Source: Candidatus Melainabacteria bacterium
GTDB lineage: Bacteria > Cyanobacteriota > Vampirovibrionia > 2-02-FULL-35-15
Direction: 5' to 3'
Assembly (NCBI GenBank): GCA_016178265.1
Contig: JACOTS010000052.1
Coordinates: 1-40,446, forward strand
DNA length: 40,446 nucleotides
Shown here: positions 9,780 through 40,446 of the stretch, piece by piece
Layout: each line of letters starts with the position of its first letter
How positions within the stretch are numbered: the first letter of the stretch is position 1
Notes under the pieces: generated by a model
What the model saw: only the letters and a program-made list of their open reading frames with translations
Databases searched by the model: none
Told to the model about the DNA's origin: nothing
Position numbers and translations under genes: made by a program

Positions 9780-10553
9780 ATGTCTAAATTAAAATTGCTT
9801 TCTTGGAATGTAAACGGCATAAGAGCTTCTCATAAAAAAGGCTTTTTGAATTGGTTAGAAAAAGAAAAGCCTGATATTCTTTGTGTTCAGGAAACAAAAG
9901 CGCAAGAGGAACAATTAACCAGTGAACTTCTTAGCCCTAATTGCTATAAAACATATTGGTCAAGTGCAGAAAAAAAAGGATATAGCGGAGTTGCAACTTA
10001 TACAAAAATTGAACCAAAAGAAGTAAAAAAAGGTCTTGGCATTAAAAGATTAGATAATGAAGGTAGAACTTTAATTTCAGACTTTGGTGATTTTATTTTA
10101 TACAACATTTATTTCCCAAATGGGCAAAGAAGTCAGGAGAGACTTGATTTTAAGCTGGATTTTTACAATGAGTTTTTAAAACAAGTAAACAAGCTCAAAG
10201 ATAAAGGTAAAAAAATTATAGTTTGCGGTGATGTAAACACAGCACATACAGAGATTGACTTAGCAAGGCCCAGAGAAAATAAAGATACTAGTGGGTTTCT
10301 GCCTGTTGAAAGAAGCTGGATGGATAAGTTTTTTTCATATGGTTATATAGATACTTTCAGGCATTTTTGTAAAGAGGGCGGGCATTATACATACTGGGAT
10401 CCAGTTACAAGAGCCCGTGAAAGAAATGTTGGGTGGAGAATAGACTACTTTTTTATTACTCCAAATCTTTTAAAGAGCCTAAAAAAAGCATTTATTCTCT
10501 CTGATGTAATGGGATCAGATCACTGTCCTCTTGGAATTGAATTAGAACTTTAA
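9780..10553 (+). CDS. xth: exodeoxyribonuclease III (AP endonuclease)
   Basis: WNVNGIRA...CVQETK...GDVNTAH...SDHCP motifs of the ExoIII/EEP family. Confidence 0.9.
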   Translation: MSKLKLLSWNVNGIRASHKKGFLNWLEKEKPDILCVQETKAQEEQLTSELLSPNCYKTYWSSAEKKGYSGVATYTKIEPKEVKKGLGIKRLDNEGRTLISDFGDFILYNIYFPNGQRSQERLDFKLDFYNEFLKQVNKLKDKGKKIIVCGDVNTAHTEIDLARPRENKDTSGFLPVERSWMDKFFSYGYIDTFRHFCKEGGHYTYWDPVTRARERNVGWRIDYFFITPNLLKSLKKAFILSDVMGSDHCPLGIELEL

Positions 10554-10963
10554 TTTAAAGATACTGGCGCAGTAAACAGTGAGTGATTTCTCTCACGCTC
10601 TTCTTGTATACGACTTCTAACAAAAAATGGATTTCCATATGCCAGTGCTGCTTGTGTAGCAATTACACCTTCTCTTACAGGGGTTGGCATTCTGGATGCA
10701 GGGTCTATTATTTCGTTAGCTTGAGTAACTGTACCAAAGTTTGTTCCATGAATATCATCATGTGTAGGAGTATTAGCTATTCTGCTAAATCCAATATGTA
10801 CTGGAATTGAATTTCTTTGAGCAATATTTACATGTGAAGAGGTTATGGCTTGAGGCCTAGTATTGTTAAAAGGATATCTTTGAACTGGTTGAACTCTTTC
10901 TTGTTGAGCAAGAGCTCTTAAGTCATTTATTCTTGTATTTGGAAATCCAACCGGTGCTATCAA
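10550..10963 (-). CDS. hypothetical protein (137 aa)
   Basis: TTG start at 10963 with GAGGAG 8 nt upstream. No family recognised. Converges on xth with a 4-nt overlap. Confidence 0.45.
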   Translation of the reverse strand: MIAPVGFPNTRINDLRALAQQERVQPVQRYPFNNTRPQAITSSHVNIAQRNSIPVHIGFSRIANTPTHDDIHGTNFGTVTQANEIIDPASRMPTPVREGVIATQAALAYGNPFFVRSRIQEERERNHSLFTAPVSLN

Positions 10964-11090
10964 TGTACTATCTCCTCAATAGGAAAATTGTCTTATACAT
11001 AGGACATTTAGTCAAGTGATTGACCCTCAAACTGTGTAAAAAAGTTTATTTAACCTATGTTTAAACTTAATTTAACCAAGTTTTAACCAA

Positions 11091-12467
11091 TTACTTCAGC
11101 ACATTCACCATATCCACGACGGTTTTTTTGGCATCTCCAAATATCATCATGGTTTTTGGCAGATAAAACAATTCATTTTCAATTCCTGCAAATCCTGCTG
11201 CCATTGATCTTTTTAGAAAAATAATTGTTTTTGCTTTATCTACATCTAATATAGGCATTCCATAGATTGGGCTTCCTGGATTATTTTTTGCTGCAGGATT
11301 TGTAACATCATTTGCACCAACAACAAGTGCCACATCAGCTCTTTCAAATTCTGTGTTAATTTGATCCATTTCATAAAGTTTTTCATAAGGCACATTTGCT
11401 TCAGCAAGAAGAACATTCATATGGCCTGGCATACGTCCTGCAACTGGATGGATTGCATATTTTACTTCAACTCCTTTGGCTTCAAGCATATCAGCAAGTT
11501 CTCTTAAATTATGCTGTGCTTGAGCAACTGCAAGTCCATACCCAGGAACAATTATTACTTCATTTGCATTTTCAAGCACGATCTGTGCATCATCTACAGA
11601 ATATCCTTGAACTGATTTTGCTTTTCCATTGGTTGCAGCTGTTGCAGAAGCTTCAACTTTTCCAAATGCACCAAACATAACATTAGTCAGGGACCTATTC
11701 ATTGCTTTGCACATAATTCTAGTTAGTATCATTCCTGATGCACCAACAAGTGCCCCTGTTACAATTAGCGCATAATTTGAGAGTGCAAAACCAGCAGCAC
11801 ATGCAGCCATTCCTGAATATGAGTTTAAAAGTGCTACAACAACAGGCATATCTGCTCCGCCTATCGGAAGCACAAGAAAAATTCCAAGTGAAAATGAAAT
11901 AGCACATATTACCCCTGCCCATAAAATGTGTTCAGGATGCATAAAAAGAAAAATTGCACCTGTTACAATCACAAAAAACTGAAGCAGATTTAATGTTTTT
12001 TGAAATGGATATGTAACTGGTTGTCCTGTAACAATTCCCTGAAGCTTTCCATACGCTACAAGACTTCCGGAAAAAGTAATAAGTCCTATGACTAAAGTAA
12101 TTAAAATTGTAGATATTTCATAAAGAGTTGGAGTTGGATAAAGCCTTACATACTCAGATACAACTACAAGTGCTGAAGCAAGACCTCCATAGCCATTAAG
12201 AAGCCCAACCATTTGAGGCATCTCTGTCATTTTGACTGTTACTGCAAGAAACGCTCCGATAGCTGAACCAAGTATAATTCCAATTATTATAAGCTGATAA
12301 TTTATTACATTTCTCTCAAATAAAGTTGCACAGATTGCAATTAACATTCCAAATGCTGAAAGAAAATTTCCATTTCTTGCAGTCTTTGGATGACTAAGCA
12401 TTTTTAAACCAAGAATAAATAAAACTGCTGAAATTAAGTATGATATGTAAATTATGTTCTCTCGCAT
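11091..12467 (-). CDS. pntB: NAD(P) transhydrogenase subunit beta
   Basis: Multi-TM N-terminus and a C-terminal dIII NADP(H) domain (VPGYGLAVAQAQH...HPVAGRMPGHMNVLLAEA...GANDVTNPAA). Confidence 0.95.
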   Translation of the reverse strand: MRENIIYISYLISAVLFILGLKMLSHPKTARNGNFLSAFGMLIAICATLFERNVINYQLIIIGIILGSAIGAFLAVTVKMTEMPQMVGLLNGYGGLASALVVVSEYVRLYPTPTLYEISTILITLVIGLITFSGSLVAYGKLQGIVTGQPVTYPFQKTLNLLQFFVIVTGAIFLFMHPEHILWAGVICAISFSLGIFLVLPIGGADMPVVVALLNSYSGMAACAAGFALSNYALIVTGALVGASGMILTRIMCKAMNRSLTNVMFGAFGKVEASATAATNGKAKSVQGYSVDDAQIVLENANEVIIVPGYGLAVAQAQHNLRELADMLEAKGVEVKYAIHPVAGRMPGHMNVLLAEANVPYEKLYEMDQINTEFERADVALVVGANDVTNPAAKNNPGSPIYGMPILDVDKAKTIIFLKRSMAAGFAGIENELFYLPKTMMIFGDAKKTVVDMVNVLK

Positions 12468-12595
12468 TTTTTAATACCGCTCGTTTCGCGCTAACGCTCA
12501 ACTCGCTTTTTTCCTCCAGCGCTTTTTGGTGAATGAATCACACAAAAAGCTTATCTCTCCTTTTTCCCTAGTTTCTATCTCTTACCTCTTATCTC
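12468..12595 (-). repeat. structured repeat cassette, type 1, fills the pntAB-pntB spacer
   Basis: In RNA (minus) orientation: heptads 12573-12600, H 12521-12550, GGAGG (revcomp of 12513-12517), S 12477-12506, UAUUAAAAA, then the pntB AUG (12467). Confidence 0.9.
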
Positions 12596-12880
12596 TTATT
12601 TCTTCTTAAACATCTTAAGCATACGATCAGTTACTGTATATCCACCAACTACATTTATTGTTGCAAAAACTATTGCTACACACCCAAGAACAGTAGCTAA
12701 GTTTGTTTCCCCATATCCTGCAGATAGAAGTGCACCAACAACCGAGATGCCAGAAATTGCATTGGAACCTGACATAAGAGGAGTATGCAATGTAGGTGGA
12801 ACCTTGGTAATAACTTCAAACCCAACAAAAATTGCAAGTACAAGAATATAAAGTGTAATTAAAAATTCTCCAAATATCAT
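12596..12880 (-). CDS. pntAB: NAD(P) transhydrogenase subunit alpha part 2 (membrane part)
   Basis: 94-aa hydrophobic protein with HTPLMSGSNAISGI, the typical split alpha2 subunit, between pntAA and pntB. Confidence 0.9.
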   Translation of the reverse strand: MIFGEFLITLYILVLAIFVGFEVITKVPPTLHTPLMSGSNAISGISVVGALLSAGYGETNLATVLGCVAIVFATINVVGGYTVTDRMLKMFKKK

Positions 12881-13091
12881 TTTAATATCGCTCGTTTCGC
12901 ACGAATGCTCAACTCGCTTTTCCTTCCCGGCGACTTTTGCCGAGTAAATCGGACAAAAGTCTTAGGTTTTTTCTGATTCCTATTTCCTAATTCCTATCTC
13001 CTTATTTTATACCGCTCGCCTCTTCGCTTTTACCTTTTTCTTTTCCCATTTTCCCTGATTCCTATCTCCTAGCTCCTATTTCCTATCTTTT
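12881..13091 (-). repeat. structured repeat cassette, type 1 plus a partial second unit, fills the pntAA-pntAB spacer
   Basis: S 12888-12917, H 12932-12961, heptads (TCCTAnn)x4 at 12978-13005, a partial ACCGCTCGCC unit at 13011-13030, and heptads x4 at 13060-13087. The pntAB AUG (12880) follows GAGCGAUAUUAAA. Confidence 0.9.
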
Positions 13092-14249
13092 TTAATGCAC
13101 CTTTGCAAGTAAATGTTTAATGTCTTCTTTTAATACTACCCCCTGATGAGTAATAAGCGCACCTTTTATAATCTCATCATTTAAATCTAAATTTAGCAAT
13201 TTATCTTTTACGAGAAGCGAAATCACACTTTCCATGTTTTTTGAAAACATTTGGCTTGCATGCATTGGCATAGAAGATGGCAAATTAATTGGACCACAAA
13301 TCTTTACACCGTTTTTTATTACATCTTTTCCAAGTTCAGTAAGTTCACAATTCCCTCCCATATCAGCTGCCAAATCAACAATTACAGAGCCTGGTTGCAT
13401 GCCCAACACGGCTTTTTCACTAATTAAAACCGGTGCTCTTTTCCCTGGAATTTGTGCTGTAGTTATAACCACATCAAATCTTTTTATCTGCTCTGCCATA
13501 AACTCTAGTTCTCTTTTGTGGCTATCGCTGGAAAGCTGTTTTGCATATCCGCCTTCCCCTTCTGTTTTTTCTCCCTTTAAATCAAAAGAAACAAACCTTG
13601 CTCCTAAGCTTTCTATTTGTTCTTTTACTACAGGTCTTGTATCAAAAGCTTCTACAACAGCACCTAGTCTTCTTGCTGTTGCTATTGCTTGAAGCCCGGC
13701 AACACCAGCTCCAATTACAAATACTTTTGCAGGTGCAATGGTACCTGCTGCAGTCATAAACATTGGAAAAAACTTAGGCAAATTAGCTGCTGCAATTAAA
13801 ACCGCTTTATAGCCTGCTATTGTACTCATAGCACTTAAGACATCCATACTCTGTGCTCTTGTAATCCTTGGAATACTGTCAAGAGAGAAAGCTGATATTT
13901 TTCTAGAAACAAGTCTTTGTATCCCGTCCACATTAGTTGCTGGTTGAAGCAAAGAAACTAAGCAACTCCCTTCTTTCATCATATTAATTTCATACTCGTC
14001 AGCTTTTTCGTTAAACTCTGGTTTATTGATTTTCATTACCAGATCTGCCGATGCAAATAGTTCCATTGGACTTTTAACAATTTCTGCACCTGCTTCTTTA
14101 TAATTTTCATCAAAAAAGTATGCGGCTTGCCCGGCATTTTGTTCAATTAATACCTGAATACCCTTGCTAGTGATTTTCTTTACGCTTTGAGGAATTAGCG
14201 CAACCCTTGTTTCATTTTGAATGATTTCTTTTGGGATACCGAGTTTCAT
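13092..14249 (-). CDS. pntAA: NAD(P) transhydrogenase subunit alpha part 1 (dI, NAD(H)-binding)
   Basis: MKLGIPKE..NETRVA start, alanine-dehydrogenase/PNT fold and the Rossmann motif VIGAGVAGLQA. Confidence 0.95.
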   Translation of the reverse strand: MKLGIPKEIIQNETRVALIPQSVKKITSKGIQVLIEQNAGQAAYFFDENYKEAGAEIVKSPMELFASADLVMKINKPEFNEKADEYEINMMKEGSCLVSLLQPATNVDGIQRLVSRKISAFSLDSIPRITRAQSMDVLSAMSTIAGYKAVLIAAANLPKFFPMFMTAAGTIAPAKVFVIGAGVAGLQAIATARRLGAVVEAFDTRPVVKEQIESLGARFVSFDLKGEKTEGEGGYAKQLSSDSHKRELEFMAEQIKRFDVVITTAQIPGKRAPVLISEKAVLGMQPGSVIVDLAADMGGNCELTELGKDVIKNGVKICGPINLPSSMPMHASQMFSKNMESVISLLVKDKLLNLDLNDEIIKGALITHQGVVLKEDIKHLLAKVH

Positions 14250-14420
14250 CTTTTACCGCTCGCTTCGCACGAATGCTCAGCTCGCTCCTTATTTTCGACG
14301 CTTTTTGGTGAGTGAATCACACAAAAAGCTTATTTCCTACTTTTCTACTTTATCGGATTTGCTGGATAAACCAGACAAATCCTACAAATTGTTTTATGCT
14401 CTGATCTTCTTCTGATTCCT
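14250..14420 (-). repeat. structured repeat cassette (type 1) forming the pntAA 5' leader
   Basis: S 14256-14285 (same core as 9617-9646), H 14300-14329, a second H 14355-14382, the shared TACAAATTGTTTT edge, and a pyrimidine tail up to 14420. GAGCGGUAAAAG precedes the pntAA AUG. Confidence 0.9.
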
Positions 14421-14424
14421 CTTC

Positions 14425-14452
14425 ATTATAAATTTAATCATAAACATTGTAA
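14425..14452 (-). promoter_or_regulatory. sigma70-like promoter candidate for the pnt operon
   Basis: On the minus strand: TTACAA (14452-14447), 16-nt spacer, TATAAT (14430-14425). The cassette at 14250-14420 would then be transcribed as leader. Confidence 0.4.
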
Positions 14453-14483
14453 AAGTATTGTTATTTTGAAAATTAACTTATAG

Positions 14484-14622
14484 GATAACTGCTCACCTAA
14501 TAGAAGCAATCTTGTGGGTGACACCGGAAGGGAGGGGGTCCATGAGCAAGGTACGTAGCTCATGGAGGGTGACCTGTAGGTGGCAGGACCCACTAAGTTA
14601 TAGCTAGCAAGGTGAGCAGTTA
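14484..14622. other. 139-nt long imperfect hairpin (candidate structured RNA or MITE-like element), class unknown
   Basis: A perfect 13-bp closing stem ATAACTGCTCACC/GGTGAGCAGTTAT. Inner stems CTTGTGGG/CCCAC(T)AAG and CCATGAGC/GCTCATGG. GC-rich core. A partial third copy of the arm (GGTAACTACTCACC) sits at 14756-14769. Confidence 0.35.
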
Positions 14623-14635
14623 TAAAAGGAACTTT

Positions 14636-14659
14636 TGTACATTCGTACAAGTCTATAAA
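14636..14659 (+). promoter_or_regulatory. palindrome TGTAC-ATTC-GTACA (LexA-box-like) next to a TATAAA -10 candidate
   Basis: Perfect inverted half-sites at 14636-14649, 4 nt upstream of TATAAA (14654-14659) and about 270 nt upstream of lexA. It resembles the GTAC-N4-GTWC LexA box type reported for cyanobacteria (from memory). Confidence 0.3.
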
Positions 14660-14806
14660 ACTGGTCAAGCAAGTGGTAGCTAGCAGCTTACCCAATAATC
14701 TTGCATTTTTACTCCTCAAATACTTAAAACGCTAGCTACCGACCATTAAATTATGGGTAACTACTCACCATCTATAAAATGACCACTATAGCAATTTATC
14801 AGGAAA

Positions 14807-14921
14807 GGTTTTGTCCGACTTGTTCGGCAAAACCTGGACATCGTGGTAAGAAGCAAATATCTAGTGCACTCTGGAAAGGTGGCGAGCAAGTTATGAGCGA
14901 GCCACCTGAGTAAAAACAATT
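14807..14921 (+). repeat. structured repeat cassette, type 2 (long variant), lexA leader
   Basis: H 14807-14834 (GGUUUUG-U-CCGA-CUUGU-UCGG-CAAAACC), a middle block shared with 20338-20379, and S-like 14878-14906 (GGTGGCGAGCAAGTTATGAGCGAGCCACC). TGAGTAAAAACAATT then leads to the lexA ATG. Confidence 0.8.
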
Positions 14922-15503
14922 ATGGCAACAGAACTTACAGAAAACCAAACCGGATTTTTAAACGGGCTTAAAAAGCAATACAGAAAAACCCCGCTTCCAT
15001 CCATAAGACAAATAGCAGAAGATCTTGGTTTTAAATATCACAATTCTGTTCAACACTATCTTGAAATATTAATGTTTCAAGGCATTATTAAAAAAATCGA
15101 TGATTTTTTATATCTAGATAAAAATTTGTTTGGTTTAAAGATCTTTGATTCCAGGGTACCTGCAGGGCTTCCTGCTCAAAGCGATGATAGCTATGAAGTT
15201 TTTGATTTTGATGAATTCATGAACATTGATAATGAGAGAGGATTTATGCTTAGGGTCTCCGGAGATTCTATGATAGACGCTGGAATACATGATGGTGATT
15301 TAATTACAGTAGATACAAAAATCAGGCCCACACATGGGCTTATAGTTGTTGCAATAGTAGATGGTGGTTATACAGTTAAGTACTTACGCAAAAAAGGAAA
15401 TAAATATTATTTAAAAGCAGCTAACCCAAAATATAATGATATTCACCCAGAGCATGAGTTTAAGGTGGTTGGTGTGGTAACCGGTTCTATCCGTAAATTT
15501 TAG
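14922..15503 (+). CDS. lexA: LexA repressor
   Basis: N-terminal winged HTH, an Ala-Gly cleavage site (VPAGLPA), and the S24 peptidase Ser (SGDSM) and Lys (TVKYL). Confidence 0.9.
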   Translation: MATELTENQTGFLNGLKKQYRKTPLPSIRQIAEDLGFKYHNSVQHYLEILMFQGIIKKIDDFLYLDKNLFGLKIFDSRVPAGLPAQSDDSYEVFDFDEFMNIDNERGFMLRVSGDSMIDAGIHDGDLITVDTKIRPTHGLIVVAIVDGGYTVKYLRKKGNKYYLKAANPKYNDIHPEHEFKVVGVVTGSIRKF

Positions 15504-39225: not shown

Positions 39226-39639
39226 ATGACAAAGCTTCAGCTACAAGATAATAAAACAATTTTAGAAGAGAAAATTAATACTATTACTCGTATAAATGTT
39301 GAAAATATCCCTTGTTATTGTGGCATAGGAATTGATGAGGAAGAAAGAAAACTGGGTCAGAAGCTTTTAATTGATGTATATGTAGATGTAGATTCTTCAA
39401 GCCTTTCAAAAACTGACAATATAAAAGATACTCTTAGTTATGTTGACATACACAAATTAGTGCAAGATGTTGCTAAAAGTAAGCCTCACTTTTTAATAGA
39501 ATATCTGGCTCATGATTTAGCAAATAATATTCTTAGGAATCCACTTGTGCATTCAGTAAAAATAAAAGTTAGAAAACCGCATATTCCATATCCTGAATTT
39601 CAAGGTGATGTTTCAGTTGAAATTGAAAGAAGAAAATGA
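39226..39639 (+). CDS. folB: dihydroneopterin aldolase
   Basis: GIGIDEEERKLGQKLLIDV...LSYVDI...VKIKVRKPH pattern. The ATG at 39226 is preferred over the track TTG at 39208. Confidence 0.75.
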   Translation: MTKLQLQDNKTILEEKINTITRINVENIPCYCGIGIDEEERKLGQKLLIDVYVDVDSSSLSKTDNIKDTLSYVDIHKLVQDVAKSKPHFLIEYLAHDLANNILRNPLVHSVKIKVRKPHIPYPEFQGDVSVEIERRK

Positions 39640-39643
39640 CATA

Positions 39644-40446
39644 GTGTTTTTGGATCATTTAAGAAGCTCTCTGATATCTTTTTGGATCGATAGCTCCGGT
39701 GGTCCAGAAAAATTATGCAAACAATCTTTTTTTAGTATAAATCCAAAGTACTACTTATATGGCTCCTTAAATGAAATCACGTTGGAAGATTGTGAAACTG
39801 GAGCAATTTCATACATTCCCGGAAACTGTTTTGATACTCTCGAAGAAAAATTGAAAGAGGAGAAGAAAAACAAAAATGGCATCTTTGTGGGTTACGTATC
39901 ATATGATTTGTTCAAAGCAAATTTAAAGGCGATTAGGTATCCCAATTTTTTCTTTGCTTTTTTCGACAATTATTCCACATTCGATCCTAATCTCTTAGCT
40001 CCCAATCCTCTTGCTTCTTATCCCTTACCTCTTACCTCGATTTCTTCTAACATGAGTGATGAAGAATATTTAGAAAAAGTAAAACAAATAAAAGAAGAAA
40101 TCAAAGCTGGCAATGTTTATCAAGTTAATTTAACTAGAGAGTATTCAATTCTAAGCTCTAAGCTCCAAACTCCAAACTCAGAACTGGATCTTTATTTCAA
40201 CCTGAGAGAAGTTTCTCCAAATCCATATGGATGTTTCTTTAAAACTCCTTTTGTAAGTATACTTTCTAGCTCACCTGAGGAATTTCTCTATATAGGACCA
40301 GCCGCCCAACAGAGTTGGGCGAGCCTTGCCACTCCTCAATCCTATATTATTCGTACTCGCCCAATTAAAGGAACTCTTCCAAAAGGAATACATAACATTG
40401 ATCCAAAAAACAAAGCAGAAAATTTAATGATTGTTGATCTTGAAAG
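39644..40446 (+). CDS. pabB: aminodeoxychorismate synthase component I (partial, runs off the window)
   Basis: Manual translation in the frame of 39644 (GTG) gives ...GIFVGYVSYDL...AGNVYQVNLTREY...SSPEEFL...RTRPIKGTLPKG...NLMIVDLE. Absent from the ORF track because there is no stop in the window. The start codon is uncertain (GTG 39644 or TTG 39650). Confidence 0.8.
   Translation, partial: MFLDHLRSSLISFWIDSSGGPEKLCKQSFFSINPKYYLYGSLNEITLEDCETGAISYIPGNCFDTLEEKLKEEKKNKNGIFVGYVSYDLFKANLKAIRYPNFFFAFFDNYSTFDPNLLAPNPLASYPLPLTSISSNMSDEEYLEKVKQIKEEIKAGNVYQVNLTREYSILSSKLQTPNSELDLYFNLREVSPNPYGCFFKTPFVSILSSSPEEFLYIGPAAQQSWASLATPQSYIIRTRPIKGTLPKGIHNIDPKNKAENLMIVDLE
40016..40036 (+). repeat. heptad array (TCTTATC CCTTACC TCTTACC) in frame inside pabB
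   Basis: Same heptad type as the cassette tail at 12573-12600 (TTCTATC TCTTACC TCTTATC TCTTATT). 21 nt equals 7 codons. Confidence 0.6.
40151..40185 (+). repeat. five tandem heptads (CTAAGCT x2, CCAAACT x2, CAGAACT) inside pabB
   Basis: Read directly from the sequence. Encodes ...LSSKLQTPNSEL... in a variable segment after YQVNL. Confidence 0.7.
40296..40343 (+). repeat. GC-rich hairpin-containing segment in frame inside pabB
   Basis: GACCAGCCGCCCAACAGAGTTGGGCGAGCCTTGCCACTCCTCAATCC. Stem GCCCAA/TTGGGC (40304-40320), a GCGAGCC word, and a CTCCTCAATCC tail. It lengthens the segment before RTRPIKGT. Confidence 0.5.

Follow-up and report, generated by a model that had tools for sequence, protein, structure and literature searches.

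Heptamer repeats have been known between bacterial genes for more than 30 years, in cyanobacteria, Xanthomonas, Beggiatoaceae and others, and they still have no accepted origin or function. According to the summaries of earlier work in PMC4679880 and PMC4692102, prokaryotes show an excess of heptamers, for which an origin by slippage was put forward (Mrazek 2007), and cyanobacterial examples have been described (Mazel 1990). Here we extend these repeats to the non-photosynthetic sister lineage of cyanobacteria, starting from three heptad arrays (A, B and C) in the spacers between the pntAA, pntAB and pntB genes of a groundwater Candidatus Melainabacteria (GCA_016178265.1; 1.87 Mb in 184 contigs, 33.6% G+C; labelled G000). 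The window, that is, the whole stretch of DNA that was analyzed, comprises the 40,446 nt of contig JACOTS010000052.1 read on the forward strand, and the three pnt genes have their mRNA sense on the minus strand. Our best reading is that heptad arrays are a DNA-level phenomenon, neither a signal that evolved for pnt nor a dedicated CsrA or ribosome-holding signal.

The short tandemly repeated repetitive (STRR) sequences of heterocystous cyanobacteria and the 7-nt long simple sequence repeats (LSSR) share several traits with the arrays reported here: tandem 7-nt units, several families per genome, a sporadic and mostly intergenic distribution, and a function that is not established. The arrays of G000 differ in coming from a metagenome-assembled genome (MAG) of a non-photosynthetic Vampirovibrionia and in having a purine-rich main unit, TAGGAGW, that resembles a Shine-Dalgarno (SD) sequence. 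They also differ in that many of them lie in frame in housekeeping genes, and in that one array type is fused to a cassette resembling a miniature inverted-repeat transposable element (MITE). Another known unit, TAACTGA, forms arrays in marine Beggiatoaceae, some cyanobacteria and Bacteroidetes (MacGregor 2015, PMC4679880). Read forward, these arrays carry stops in three frames and overlap upstream stops or precede starts, while their reverse orientation is tolerated within open reading frames (ORFs); S1, Csp and CsrA were suggested as binders, as a proposal only (PMC4679880). Three-frame stops on one strand and overlap with upstream stops are also found here. On the other hand, TAACTGA is one unit across phyla, whereas the units described here are many and vary even between species of one genus, and canonical SDs were reported to be rare near TAACTGA, whereas our main unit carries an SD core. 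TAACTGA itself was not among the consensus units of our 97 arrays. Finally, the GGGAATC/GGGGAYT heptamers of Xanthomonas and Nostoc are intergenic, sometimes in inverted pairs that form hairpins (Rehm 2015, PMC4692102), and vary in length and sequence among related strains (PMC4692102). They are G-rich and form quadruplexes, unlike the units found here, which contain at most GG and cannot do so.

The pnt genes, whose counterparts in a second assembly carry Pfam labels, are separated by spacers of 211 nt (pntAA-pntAB) and 128 nt (pntAB-pntB). The initial annotation of this DNA had reported arrays of four heptads at 12978-13005, 13060-13087 and 12573-12600, and we recovered all three, both by direct reading and with Tandem Repeats Finder (TRF), with a period of 7 that is far beyond chance (Table 1). 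All of them are in direct orientation. They had been described as lying immediately after the upstream stop codons, which is true of array A, beginning 4 nt past the pntAA stop, and of array C, whose first heptad provides the TAA that is the pntAB stop. It is not true of array B, which is found 85 nt past the pntAA stop, in the interior of the 211-nt spacer and just 3' of a truncated cassette end. Similarly, the A/U-AGGA motifs attributed to the arrays are present in A and B, with four GGA each, and missing from C, where the only GGA is found in the flanking run. The degenerate purine tract between arrays A and B keeps a weak G-G phase of 7 and terminates in what appears to be the truncated 3' end of a cassette, GCGAAGAGGCGAGCGGUAUAAAAU, a resemblance to cassette ends that was judged by eye and not by a scored alignment. 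In both pnt spacers the arrays are predicted to be unpaired and the cassette hairpins to be folded. We detected no promoter-like or terminator-like site in either spacer, so a promoter or terminator role for them was discarded, and the three genes are probably on one mRNA that contains the arrays; a promoter-like site is found upstream of the whole pnt unit.

To contextualize these arrays, we ran TRF on the whole genome and on a locally shuffled copy of it. With a score of at least 40 and at least 3 copies, the genome contains 62 period-7 arrays and the shuffled genome none. Intergenic arrays were distributed by period as 30 (period 7), 6 (period 8), 1 (period 9) and 2 (period 14), and only period 7 was enriched. 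The arrays are thus a property of the whole genome and not of the pnt locus. Lowering the score to at least 36 gave about 97 arrays, 57 of them intergenic and 40 inside ORF calls, which is a larger share within ORFs than usually described for heptanucleotide repeats. ORFs were taken from a crude caller, which leaves about 11% of the genome outside ORF calls and makes all statistics on array position approximate; with 57 of 97 arrays in this 11%, the arrays are concentrated in non-coding DNA. Arrays were found on both strands. Assigned by exact canonical counts of the consensus units, they fall into the families TAGGAGW (about a third of the arrays), TAAGAGR, TAAGCGK, ATACGGT, GGACAAG/GGACTAG, CAAGTTT, GCTAAAA, AAATCYR and TGAGCRY. 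A single-linkage clustering that allowed one mismatch between units was discarded: it chained 90 of the 97 arrays into one cluster, which is uninformative because the 14 rotations and strands compared for each pair make chance linkage expected.

The intergenic arrays also show a bias in orientation. The purine strand has stops in all three frames in 38 of the 57 and the other strand in 16, and in spacers between co-directional genes the purine strand is the mRNA strand in 22 cases and the opposite strand in 8 (binomial p=0.016). Half of these sense arrays (11 of 22) begin no more than 12 nt past the upstream stop, while 7.4 would be expected under uniform placement (p=0.04). The enrichment next to stop codons that the initial annotation had suggested looking for is therefore present genome-wide and is weak, and it is due in part to the small size of the original spacers. 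At the other end of the spacer, 8 arrays finish 12 nt or less before the next start, where 7.4 would be expected (p=0.47). In several cases, such as on contigs C156, C157, C166 and C28, the array makes up the entire spacer between two co-directional genes. We also found inverted pairs of arrays about 6-28 nt apart and without a gene inside, which would fold as long imperfect hairpins (Table 1).

Comparison with relatives indicates that the pnt arrays are newcomers to their spacers. The pnt gene order is shared by six genomes of the same family, in which pntAA and pntAB overlap or are separated by at most 26 nt and pntAB and pntB lie 4-65 nt apart, and no heptad array or cassette was found in any of these spacers. 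Because the short spacers of the six relatives lack arrays, those of G000 are, by this comparison, lineage-specific insertions. We also counted heptad units in 41 Vampirovibrionia genomes. AGGA-N3 arrays gave 53 matches in G000, 25 in one other genus and 0 or 1 in the 39 other genomes, and each of the unit classes tested was abundant in one or two of the 41 genomes and near zero in the rest. Within the species, a second assembly (GCA_016196635.1) is 99.85% identical over the 5285 nt around pnt; all eight differences are in coding sequence, and the spacers and arrays A, B and C are identical.

The arrays found in frame inside protein genes point in the same direction. They occur in ValRS, AlaRS, acetyl-CoA synthetase (Acs), RecJ, PurL, MutL and a UbiD-like gene, and also within the window, in a PabB/TrpE-like ORF (Table 1). 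In ValRS, CAGGAGATAGGAGTCAGGAGTTAGGAGATAG is in frame within an insert of about 19 residues that is missing in 13 relatives. When compared with solved homologues, AlaRS and Acs have 8 and 11 extra residues exactly where the arrays lie, and in the PabB-like ORF a 5-residue excess coincides with the two short arrays. Units that are rich in stops are placed inside ORFs in a stop-free orientation or frame. Arrays also occur in genes of G004, from a second genus of the family, in which CAGGAGA and GAGGATT arrays lie mostly within ORFs. This in-frame landing in aminoacyl-tRNA synthetases, as well as in Acs and other genes, argues that the repeats are generated at the DNA level, by a process acting DNA-wide, and that selection then sets which of them survive.

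Table 1. Location of the features discussed. Positions without a contig name refer to the window.
Feature	Location	Strand	Remarks
pntAA	13092-14249	-	stop codon 13092-13094
pntAB	12596-12880	-	stop codon 12596-12598
pntB	11091-12467	-	pnt unit in total 11091-14249
Heptad array A	13060-13088	-	GAUAGGA AAUAGGA GCUAGGA GAUAGGA; TAGGAGW family; TRF 13060-13088, period 7, 4.1 copies, 81% matches
Heptad array B	12976-13007	-	AGGAGAU AGGAAUU AGGAAAU AGGAAUC; UAGGAGW/UAGGAAW type; TRF 12977-13007, period 7, 4.3 copies, 79% matches
Heptad array C	12572-12604	-	AAUAAGA GAUAAGA GGUAAGA GAUAGAA; TAAGAGR family, without GGA; TRF 12576-12604, period 7, 4.1 copies, 86% matches
Degenerate purine tract	13008-13059	-	weak G-G phase of 7
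Cassette copy before pntB	12474-12556	-	nhmmer; ends 6 nt ahead of the AUG
Cassette copy before pntAB	12885-12967	-	nhmmer, 79.7 bits; ends 4 nt ahead of the AUG; hairpins predicted
Cassette copy before pntAA	14254-14335	-	nhmmer; ends 4 nt ahead of the AUG; no heptad array before it
Promoter-like site	14425-14453	-	TTTACA, 17-nt spacer, TATAAT; 11 of 12 matches; ahead of all three pnt genes
PabB/TrpE-like ORF	39605-40444	+	open at the window end
Period-7 array, CCTCTTA type	40007-40038	+	pyrimidine strand; in frame in the PabB/TrpE-like ORF; TRF
Two short period-7 arrays	40150-40179	+	TCTAAGC x2 and CTCCAAA x2; in frame in the PabB-like ORF; TRF
ValRS	C138:23334-26123	-	in-frame heptad array
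AlaRS	C138:35009-37756	+	in-frame heptad array
Acs	C113:5040-6974	-	in-frame heptad array
RecJ	C51:9857-12445	-	in-frame heptad array
PurL	C149:32588-34861	+	in-frame heptad array
MutL	C181:17948-19831	-	in-frame heptad array
UbiD-like gene	C110:5094-6725	-	in-frame heptad array
Complementary array pairs	C78:9409-9497, C96:6359-6452, C108:307-378, C113:17026-17113, C93:4392-4474		
PF05635 cassette	C137:12299-12814 (locus L108:1460-1973)		arms 12299-12330 (TAGGAAT/TAGGAGA) and complement 12784-12814

Each pnt gene has upstream of it a copy of an 83-nt dispersed repeat with two hairpins, the cassette mentioned above. It gave 88 nhmmer matches genome-wide, 53 of them full length; the feature downstream shares the orientation of the cassette in 38 cases and has the opposite one in 11, and its start is often only 2-8 nt away. 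The cassette is MITE-like, and in a pattern search its matches were confined to groundwater Candidatus Melainabacteria assemblies. Heptad arrays had initially been taken for the tail of this cassette. In mRNA sense they lie 5' of the hairpins, and only 13 of 80 intergenic arrays are within 40 nt of a cassette match, with 67 not adjoining one, so arrays are not a general part of it. (A lag-7 identity cut-off of 0.8 over 28 nt was dropped for this association, as it misses arrays with alternating unit variants.) Array B is the exception. Its four heptads followed by AUCAGAAAAA-CUAAGACUUUUGUCCGA recur in seven other cassette copies on other contigs, three with one base different, and in three further copies 2-6 heptads take the place of the four. 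Judging from these copies, one cassette subfamily has array B as a constant 5' module, which is copied along with it, while arrays A and C are outside the unit defined by nhmmer. Bacterial MITEs such as Correia/NEMIS are co-transcribed with neighbouring genes, and array B resembles them in spreading as part of a small non-coding repeat whose landing sites are short gaps ahead of genes. The difference is that here the MITE accounts for only a minority of the intergenic arrays.

In relatives, the core of the cassette is found inside an element of about 130 nt with terminal inverted repeats (TIRs; GTTACTRCC/GGYAGWAAC) and 8-bp target duplications (loci L003, L011, L023, L024, L037, L039 and L061, in the Melainabacteria MAGs nzgw190 and nzgw193). 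Several of these duplications include an ATG start codon, for instance AAAAAATG and ATGAAAAC. We also noted in G000 a repeat of about 190 nt at 38 sites (e.g. C53:-3498, C55:+15586 and C111:-6014), which starts with GTTACTRCCTAGCTAGTGTAATATTTCAAAG and holds two hairpins, an H-like one, AAGATTTTATCCGATTTATTCGGTAAAATCT, and a GC one, CCGGCGAAGCTCATTCGTGAGCAAGCCGG; it resembles the 83-nt cassette and may be a relative of it that bears TIRs.

A second mobile-like structure with heptads was found around a PF05635 gene. ORF-bearing intervening sequences (IVS) of 23S rRNA, as in Leptospira and Coxiella, have an S23p/PF05635 gene between complementary arms. G000 has a single PF05635 gene (C137:12318-12668; '23S rRNA intervening-sequence protein', a four-helix bundle), and it too lies between two complementary arms, whose predicted pairing closes off the domain (z = -3.1). 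The same layout of inverted arms is found in three relatives, G011 (L107, GTATKGA), G010 (L109, AGAGRTC) and G004 (L115, AGAATTR). Unlike the IVS, the C137 cassette is located between protein-coding genes and not in rRNA, and its arms are tandem heptads, the first of which begins 3 nt past the stop codon of the adjacent gene. The pnt arrays differ from the IVS in being single and direct: a search for inverted partner arrays of A, B and C found none, and there is no PF05635 gene between the pnt arrays.

The unit of the arms is also the unit dispersed in each of these genomes. Among the 41 genomes counted, AGAGRTC arrays gave 56 matches in G010 and none in G011 or G005, which are of the same genus, and AGAATTR arrays gave 20 in G004 and few elsewhere. 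GTATKGA arrays were found at six further loci in G011 and one in G010; the pattern also picks up G000, through the ATACGGT-type unit of that genome. Hence, in four genomes (G000, G004, G010 and G011) the arm unit matches the dispersed unit of the genome itself, a relation that is correlational. Arrays A and B share the TAGGAGW/TAGGAAT type with the C137 arms, and array C (TAAGAGR) differs; unit type thus ties A and B to the same repeat system as the PF05635 cassette. At the PF05635 loci of G010 and G011 the ORFs are alike (42% identity) and the flanks are not, which argues that the cassette is mobile.

Taking these results together, we consider it probable that arrays A, B and C are heptanucleotide repeats of the STRR/LSSR type, inserted into the pnt spacers and tolerated there in the sense orientation. 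The ancestral spacers would have measured from a few to a few tens of bases and would have been filled by insertions in this lineage. Array B would have arrived built into the 5' end of a MITE-like cassette subfamily, and A (TAGGAGW) and C (TAAGAGR) as separate arrays, on or beside the upstream stop. Arrays may be copied or inserted as blocks, with steps of 7 or 14 nt between copies, and selection would then filter their survival, favouring in spacers the purine strand as mRNA. A sense array could be tolerated in that it does not fold on itself, has stops in three frames and carries SD cores instead of anti-SD-like CUCCU runs; within genes, arrays would survive only where a tolerant loop accepts them in a frame or orientation free of stops. 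Periodicity, abundance, unit families, insertion status, orientation bias and the match of arm units to dispersed units are shown by the data, and the mode of array generation and the neutrality or toleration of the arrays in pnt are what we infer here. The pnt spacers are recent insertions, whose purine arrays are probably tolerated and not required. As a regulatory feature the pnt arrays would then be ordinary, and they are useful as clean evidence on how heptamer repeats arise in bacteria. The SD-like main unit, the fusion to a MITE-like cassette, the frequent in-frame arrays in conserved enzymes and the match between PF05635 arms and dispersed units make this case distinctive.

Several observations weigh against this explanation. 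The sense bias and the adjacency to stops are equally predicted by a functional role at the RNA level, and the positional statistics depend on the crude ORF caller. Two units, TAGGAGA and TAGGAGT, make up 26 of the 97 consensus units, and such dominance of a few units points to copying, selection or a specific factor, since slippage from random seeds would not predict it. Moreover, array length did not vary between the two assemblies and active slippage was not demonstrated; the arrays are imperfect (79-88% matches by TRF), so slippage should be damped. Finally, the link to PF05635 is only correlational, and the patterns used to search for dispersed arrays were derived from the arms themselves.

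That last link is the basis of an explanation that we regard as possible and rather unlikely, in which the dispersed arrays would be solo arms, gene-less derivatives or binding sites of the mobile, IVS-like PF05635 cassette. If true, it would account for the long-unexplained heptamer repeats of bacteria (STRR, TAACTGA and others) and provide a mechanism that places short arrays in operon spacers and, in frame, in essential genes. Where insertions had lengthened a spacer, sense arrays of the SD type could then have been recruited as landing pads for ribosomes.

One could also argue that the arrays act on translation, as the initial annotation had suggested when it described them as SD-like sites that could hold terminating ribosomes. 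The 3' end of the 16S rRNA, on contig C164, reads GGATCACCTCCTTTCT, and because AGGAG is complementary to it, every TAGGAGW heptad holds a 5-nt SD core. An SD-like motif is found 5-9 nt before the start in about a quarter to a third of the genes. Repeats of AGGAG after a stop could then pair with the anti-SD and work as re-initiation or standby pads, holding a terminating or scanning ribosome on the long spacer up to the SD patch and AUG at the cassette end and so preserving the coupled synthesis of PntAA, PntAB and PntB. This is consistent with the arrays being predicted single-stranded, with the probable single pnt mRNA, with the sense bias and the excess near upstream stops given above, and with the spacers that consist entirely of array; a translational role was suggested for the similarly placed TAACTGA arrays (MacGregor 2015, PMC4679880). 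However, arrays without any SD core (CAAGTTT, AAAATCC, GCTAAAA and ATACGGT) occupy the same kinds of position, so ribosome holding cannot be the general cause of the arrays. In addition, array C has only weak GAGG cores, the pnt spacers of relatives (0-65 nt) have no arrays, the same units occur antisense and within ORFs, and the enrichment is weak near stops and missing near starts. The SD reading of the sequence is therefore plausible and unproven, and is not the cause of the periodicity; as an explanation of the arrays, re-initiation seems unlikely. The pnt spacers are nevertheless a clean test case for whether post-stop SD-core repeats aid re-initiation over a long spacer.

The arrays might instead offer multivalent RNA or DNA binding sites to a lineage-specific protein, either PF05635 or, with a smaller share, a CsrA-domain protein, which we consider quite improbable. 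In favour of PF05635 as a candidate binder, four genomes have an arm unit equal to their dispersed unit, and this unit is not the same even in two species of one genus; against it, G000 has several other heptad families for its one PF05635 gene. Binding by CsrA/RsmA had been proposed initially from the ANGGA motifs, and 31 of the 57 intergenic arrays do have at least three GGA, while 26 have fewer. A search of the genome for csrA gave one CsrA domain (PF02599; 64.8 bits, residues 108-154; C163:5808-5951) within an atypical ORF of 265 aa (L072:1180-1977) whose neighbours are membrane-protein, NUDIX and NuoH-like genes; neither a small CsrA nor a flagellar/FliW context around this domain was found in the genome. 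The C-terminal part of this ORF resembles a second, degenerate CsrA-like segment.

With respect to known CsrA targets, the arrays are similar to the CsrB/RsmY/RsmZ sponges and to CsrA-regulated leaders in the many closely spaced GGA on one transcript. They differ from them in that the GGA are in an unpaired purine run with strict 7-nt spacing and not in hairpin loops, in that one of the three arrays has no GGA, and in not being conserved in relatives, in a genome lacking a canonical small CsrA. The arrays are also far from the next AUG (95-180 nt upstream), with no overlap with the SD or start as in CsrA sites, and lack a separate promoter or terminator. When 10500-15500 was scanned against Rfam at E<=5, no family matched, including CsrB, RsmY and RsmZ. 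CsrA was consequently rejected as a general cause, given the many arrays that lack GGA, the array-free pnt spacers of relatives and this Rfam result, and the CsrA reading is not supported: the periodicity is untied to GGA, and the arrays lie on either strand and also, in frame, within housekeeping genes. A HutP-type site (UAG-N4-UAG-N4-UAG) was also considered and rejected: its spacing fits TAGGAGW because the unit itself produces it, but HutP (PF09021) is absent from the genome (a B. subtilis control was positive).

Lastly, contingency loci, in which gain or loss of 7-nt units would switch neighbouring genes by phase variation, are highly improbable: such switching classically acts on tandem repeats between genes and in ORFs, one 7-nt step changes the reading frame and paralogous cassette copies have 2-6 units, but the imperfect repeats suppress slippage, a frameshift would be lethal in the essential ValRS and AlaRS, the 99.85%-identical assemblies show no length change, and a 7-nt change in an intercistronic spacer has no obvious on/off effect.

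Some further observations concern the surroundings of the arrays. On contig C164, the 3' end of the 16S rRNA is followed by a period-7 array of the AATGCAG/AATGCGG type in the spacer (C164:218-352). The pnt leader has a hairpin, GGAUUUGUCUGGUUUAUCCAGCAAAUCC, at 14360-14400 (minus strand), and a similar start, GUAGGAUUUGU, is found downstream of a cassette on contig C69. In the PabB-like ORF, a small GC hairpin, GCCCAACAGAGTTGGGC, lies near 40300-40316. The ValRS of the relative G005 matches in two pieces (G005:C27:19374-20204) with about 84 nt of extra DNA between them, at a position different from that of the insert in G000, which suggests an independent in-frame insertion. Finally, a palindromic repeat of the GTCATTGCGAGGAGC...GCGACGAAGCAATC type fills the pntAB-pntB spacer of G004 (L074), and a translated repeat of this type, SVIARSVSDEAISIG, directly follows the heptad-encoded segment at residues ~235-260 of RecJ.

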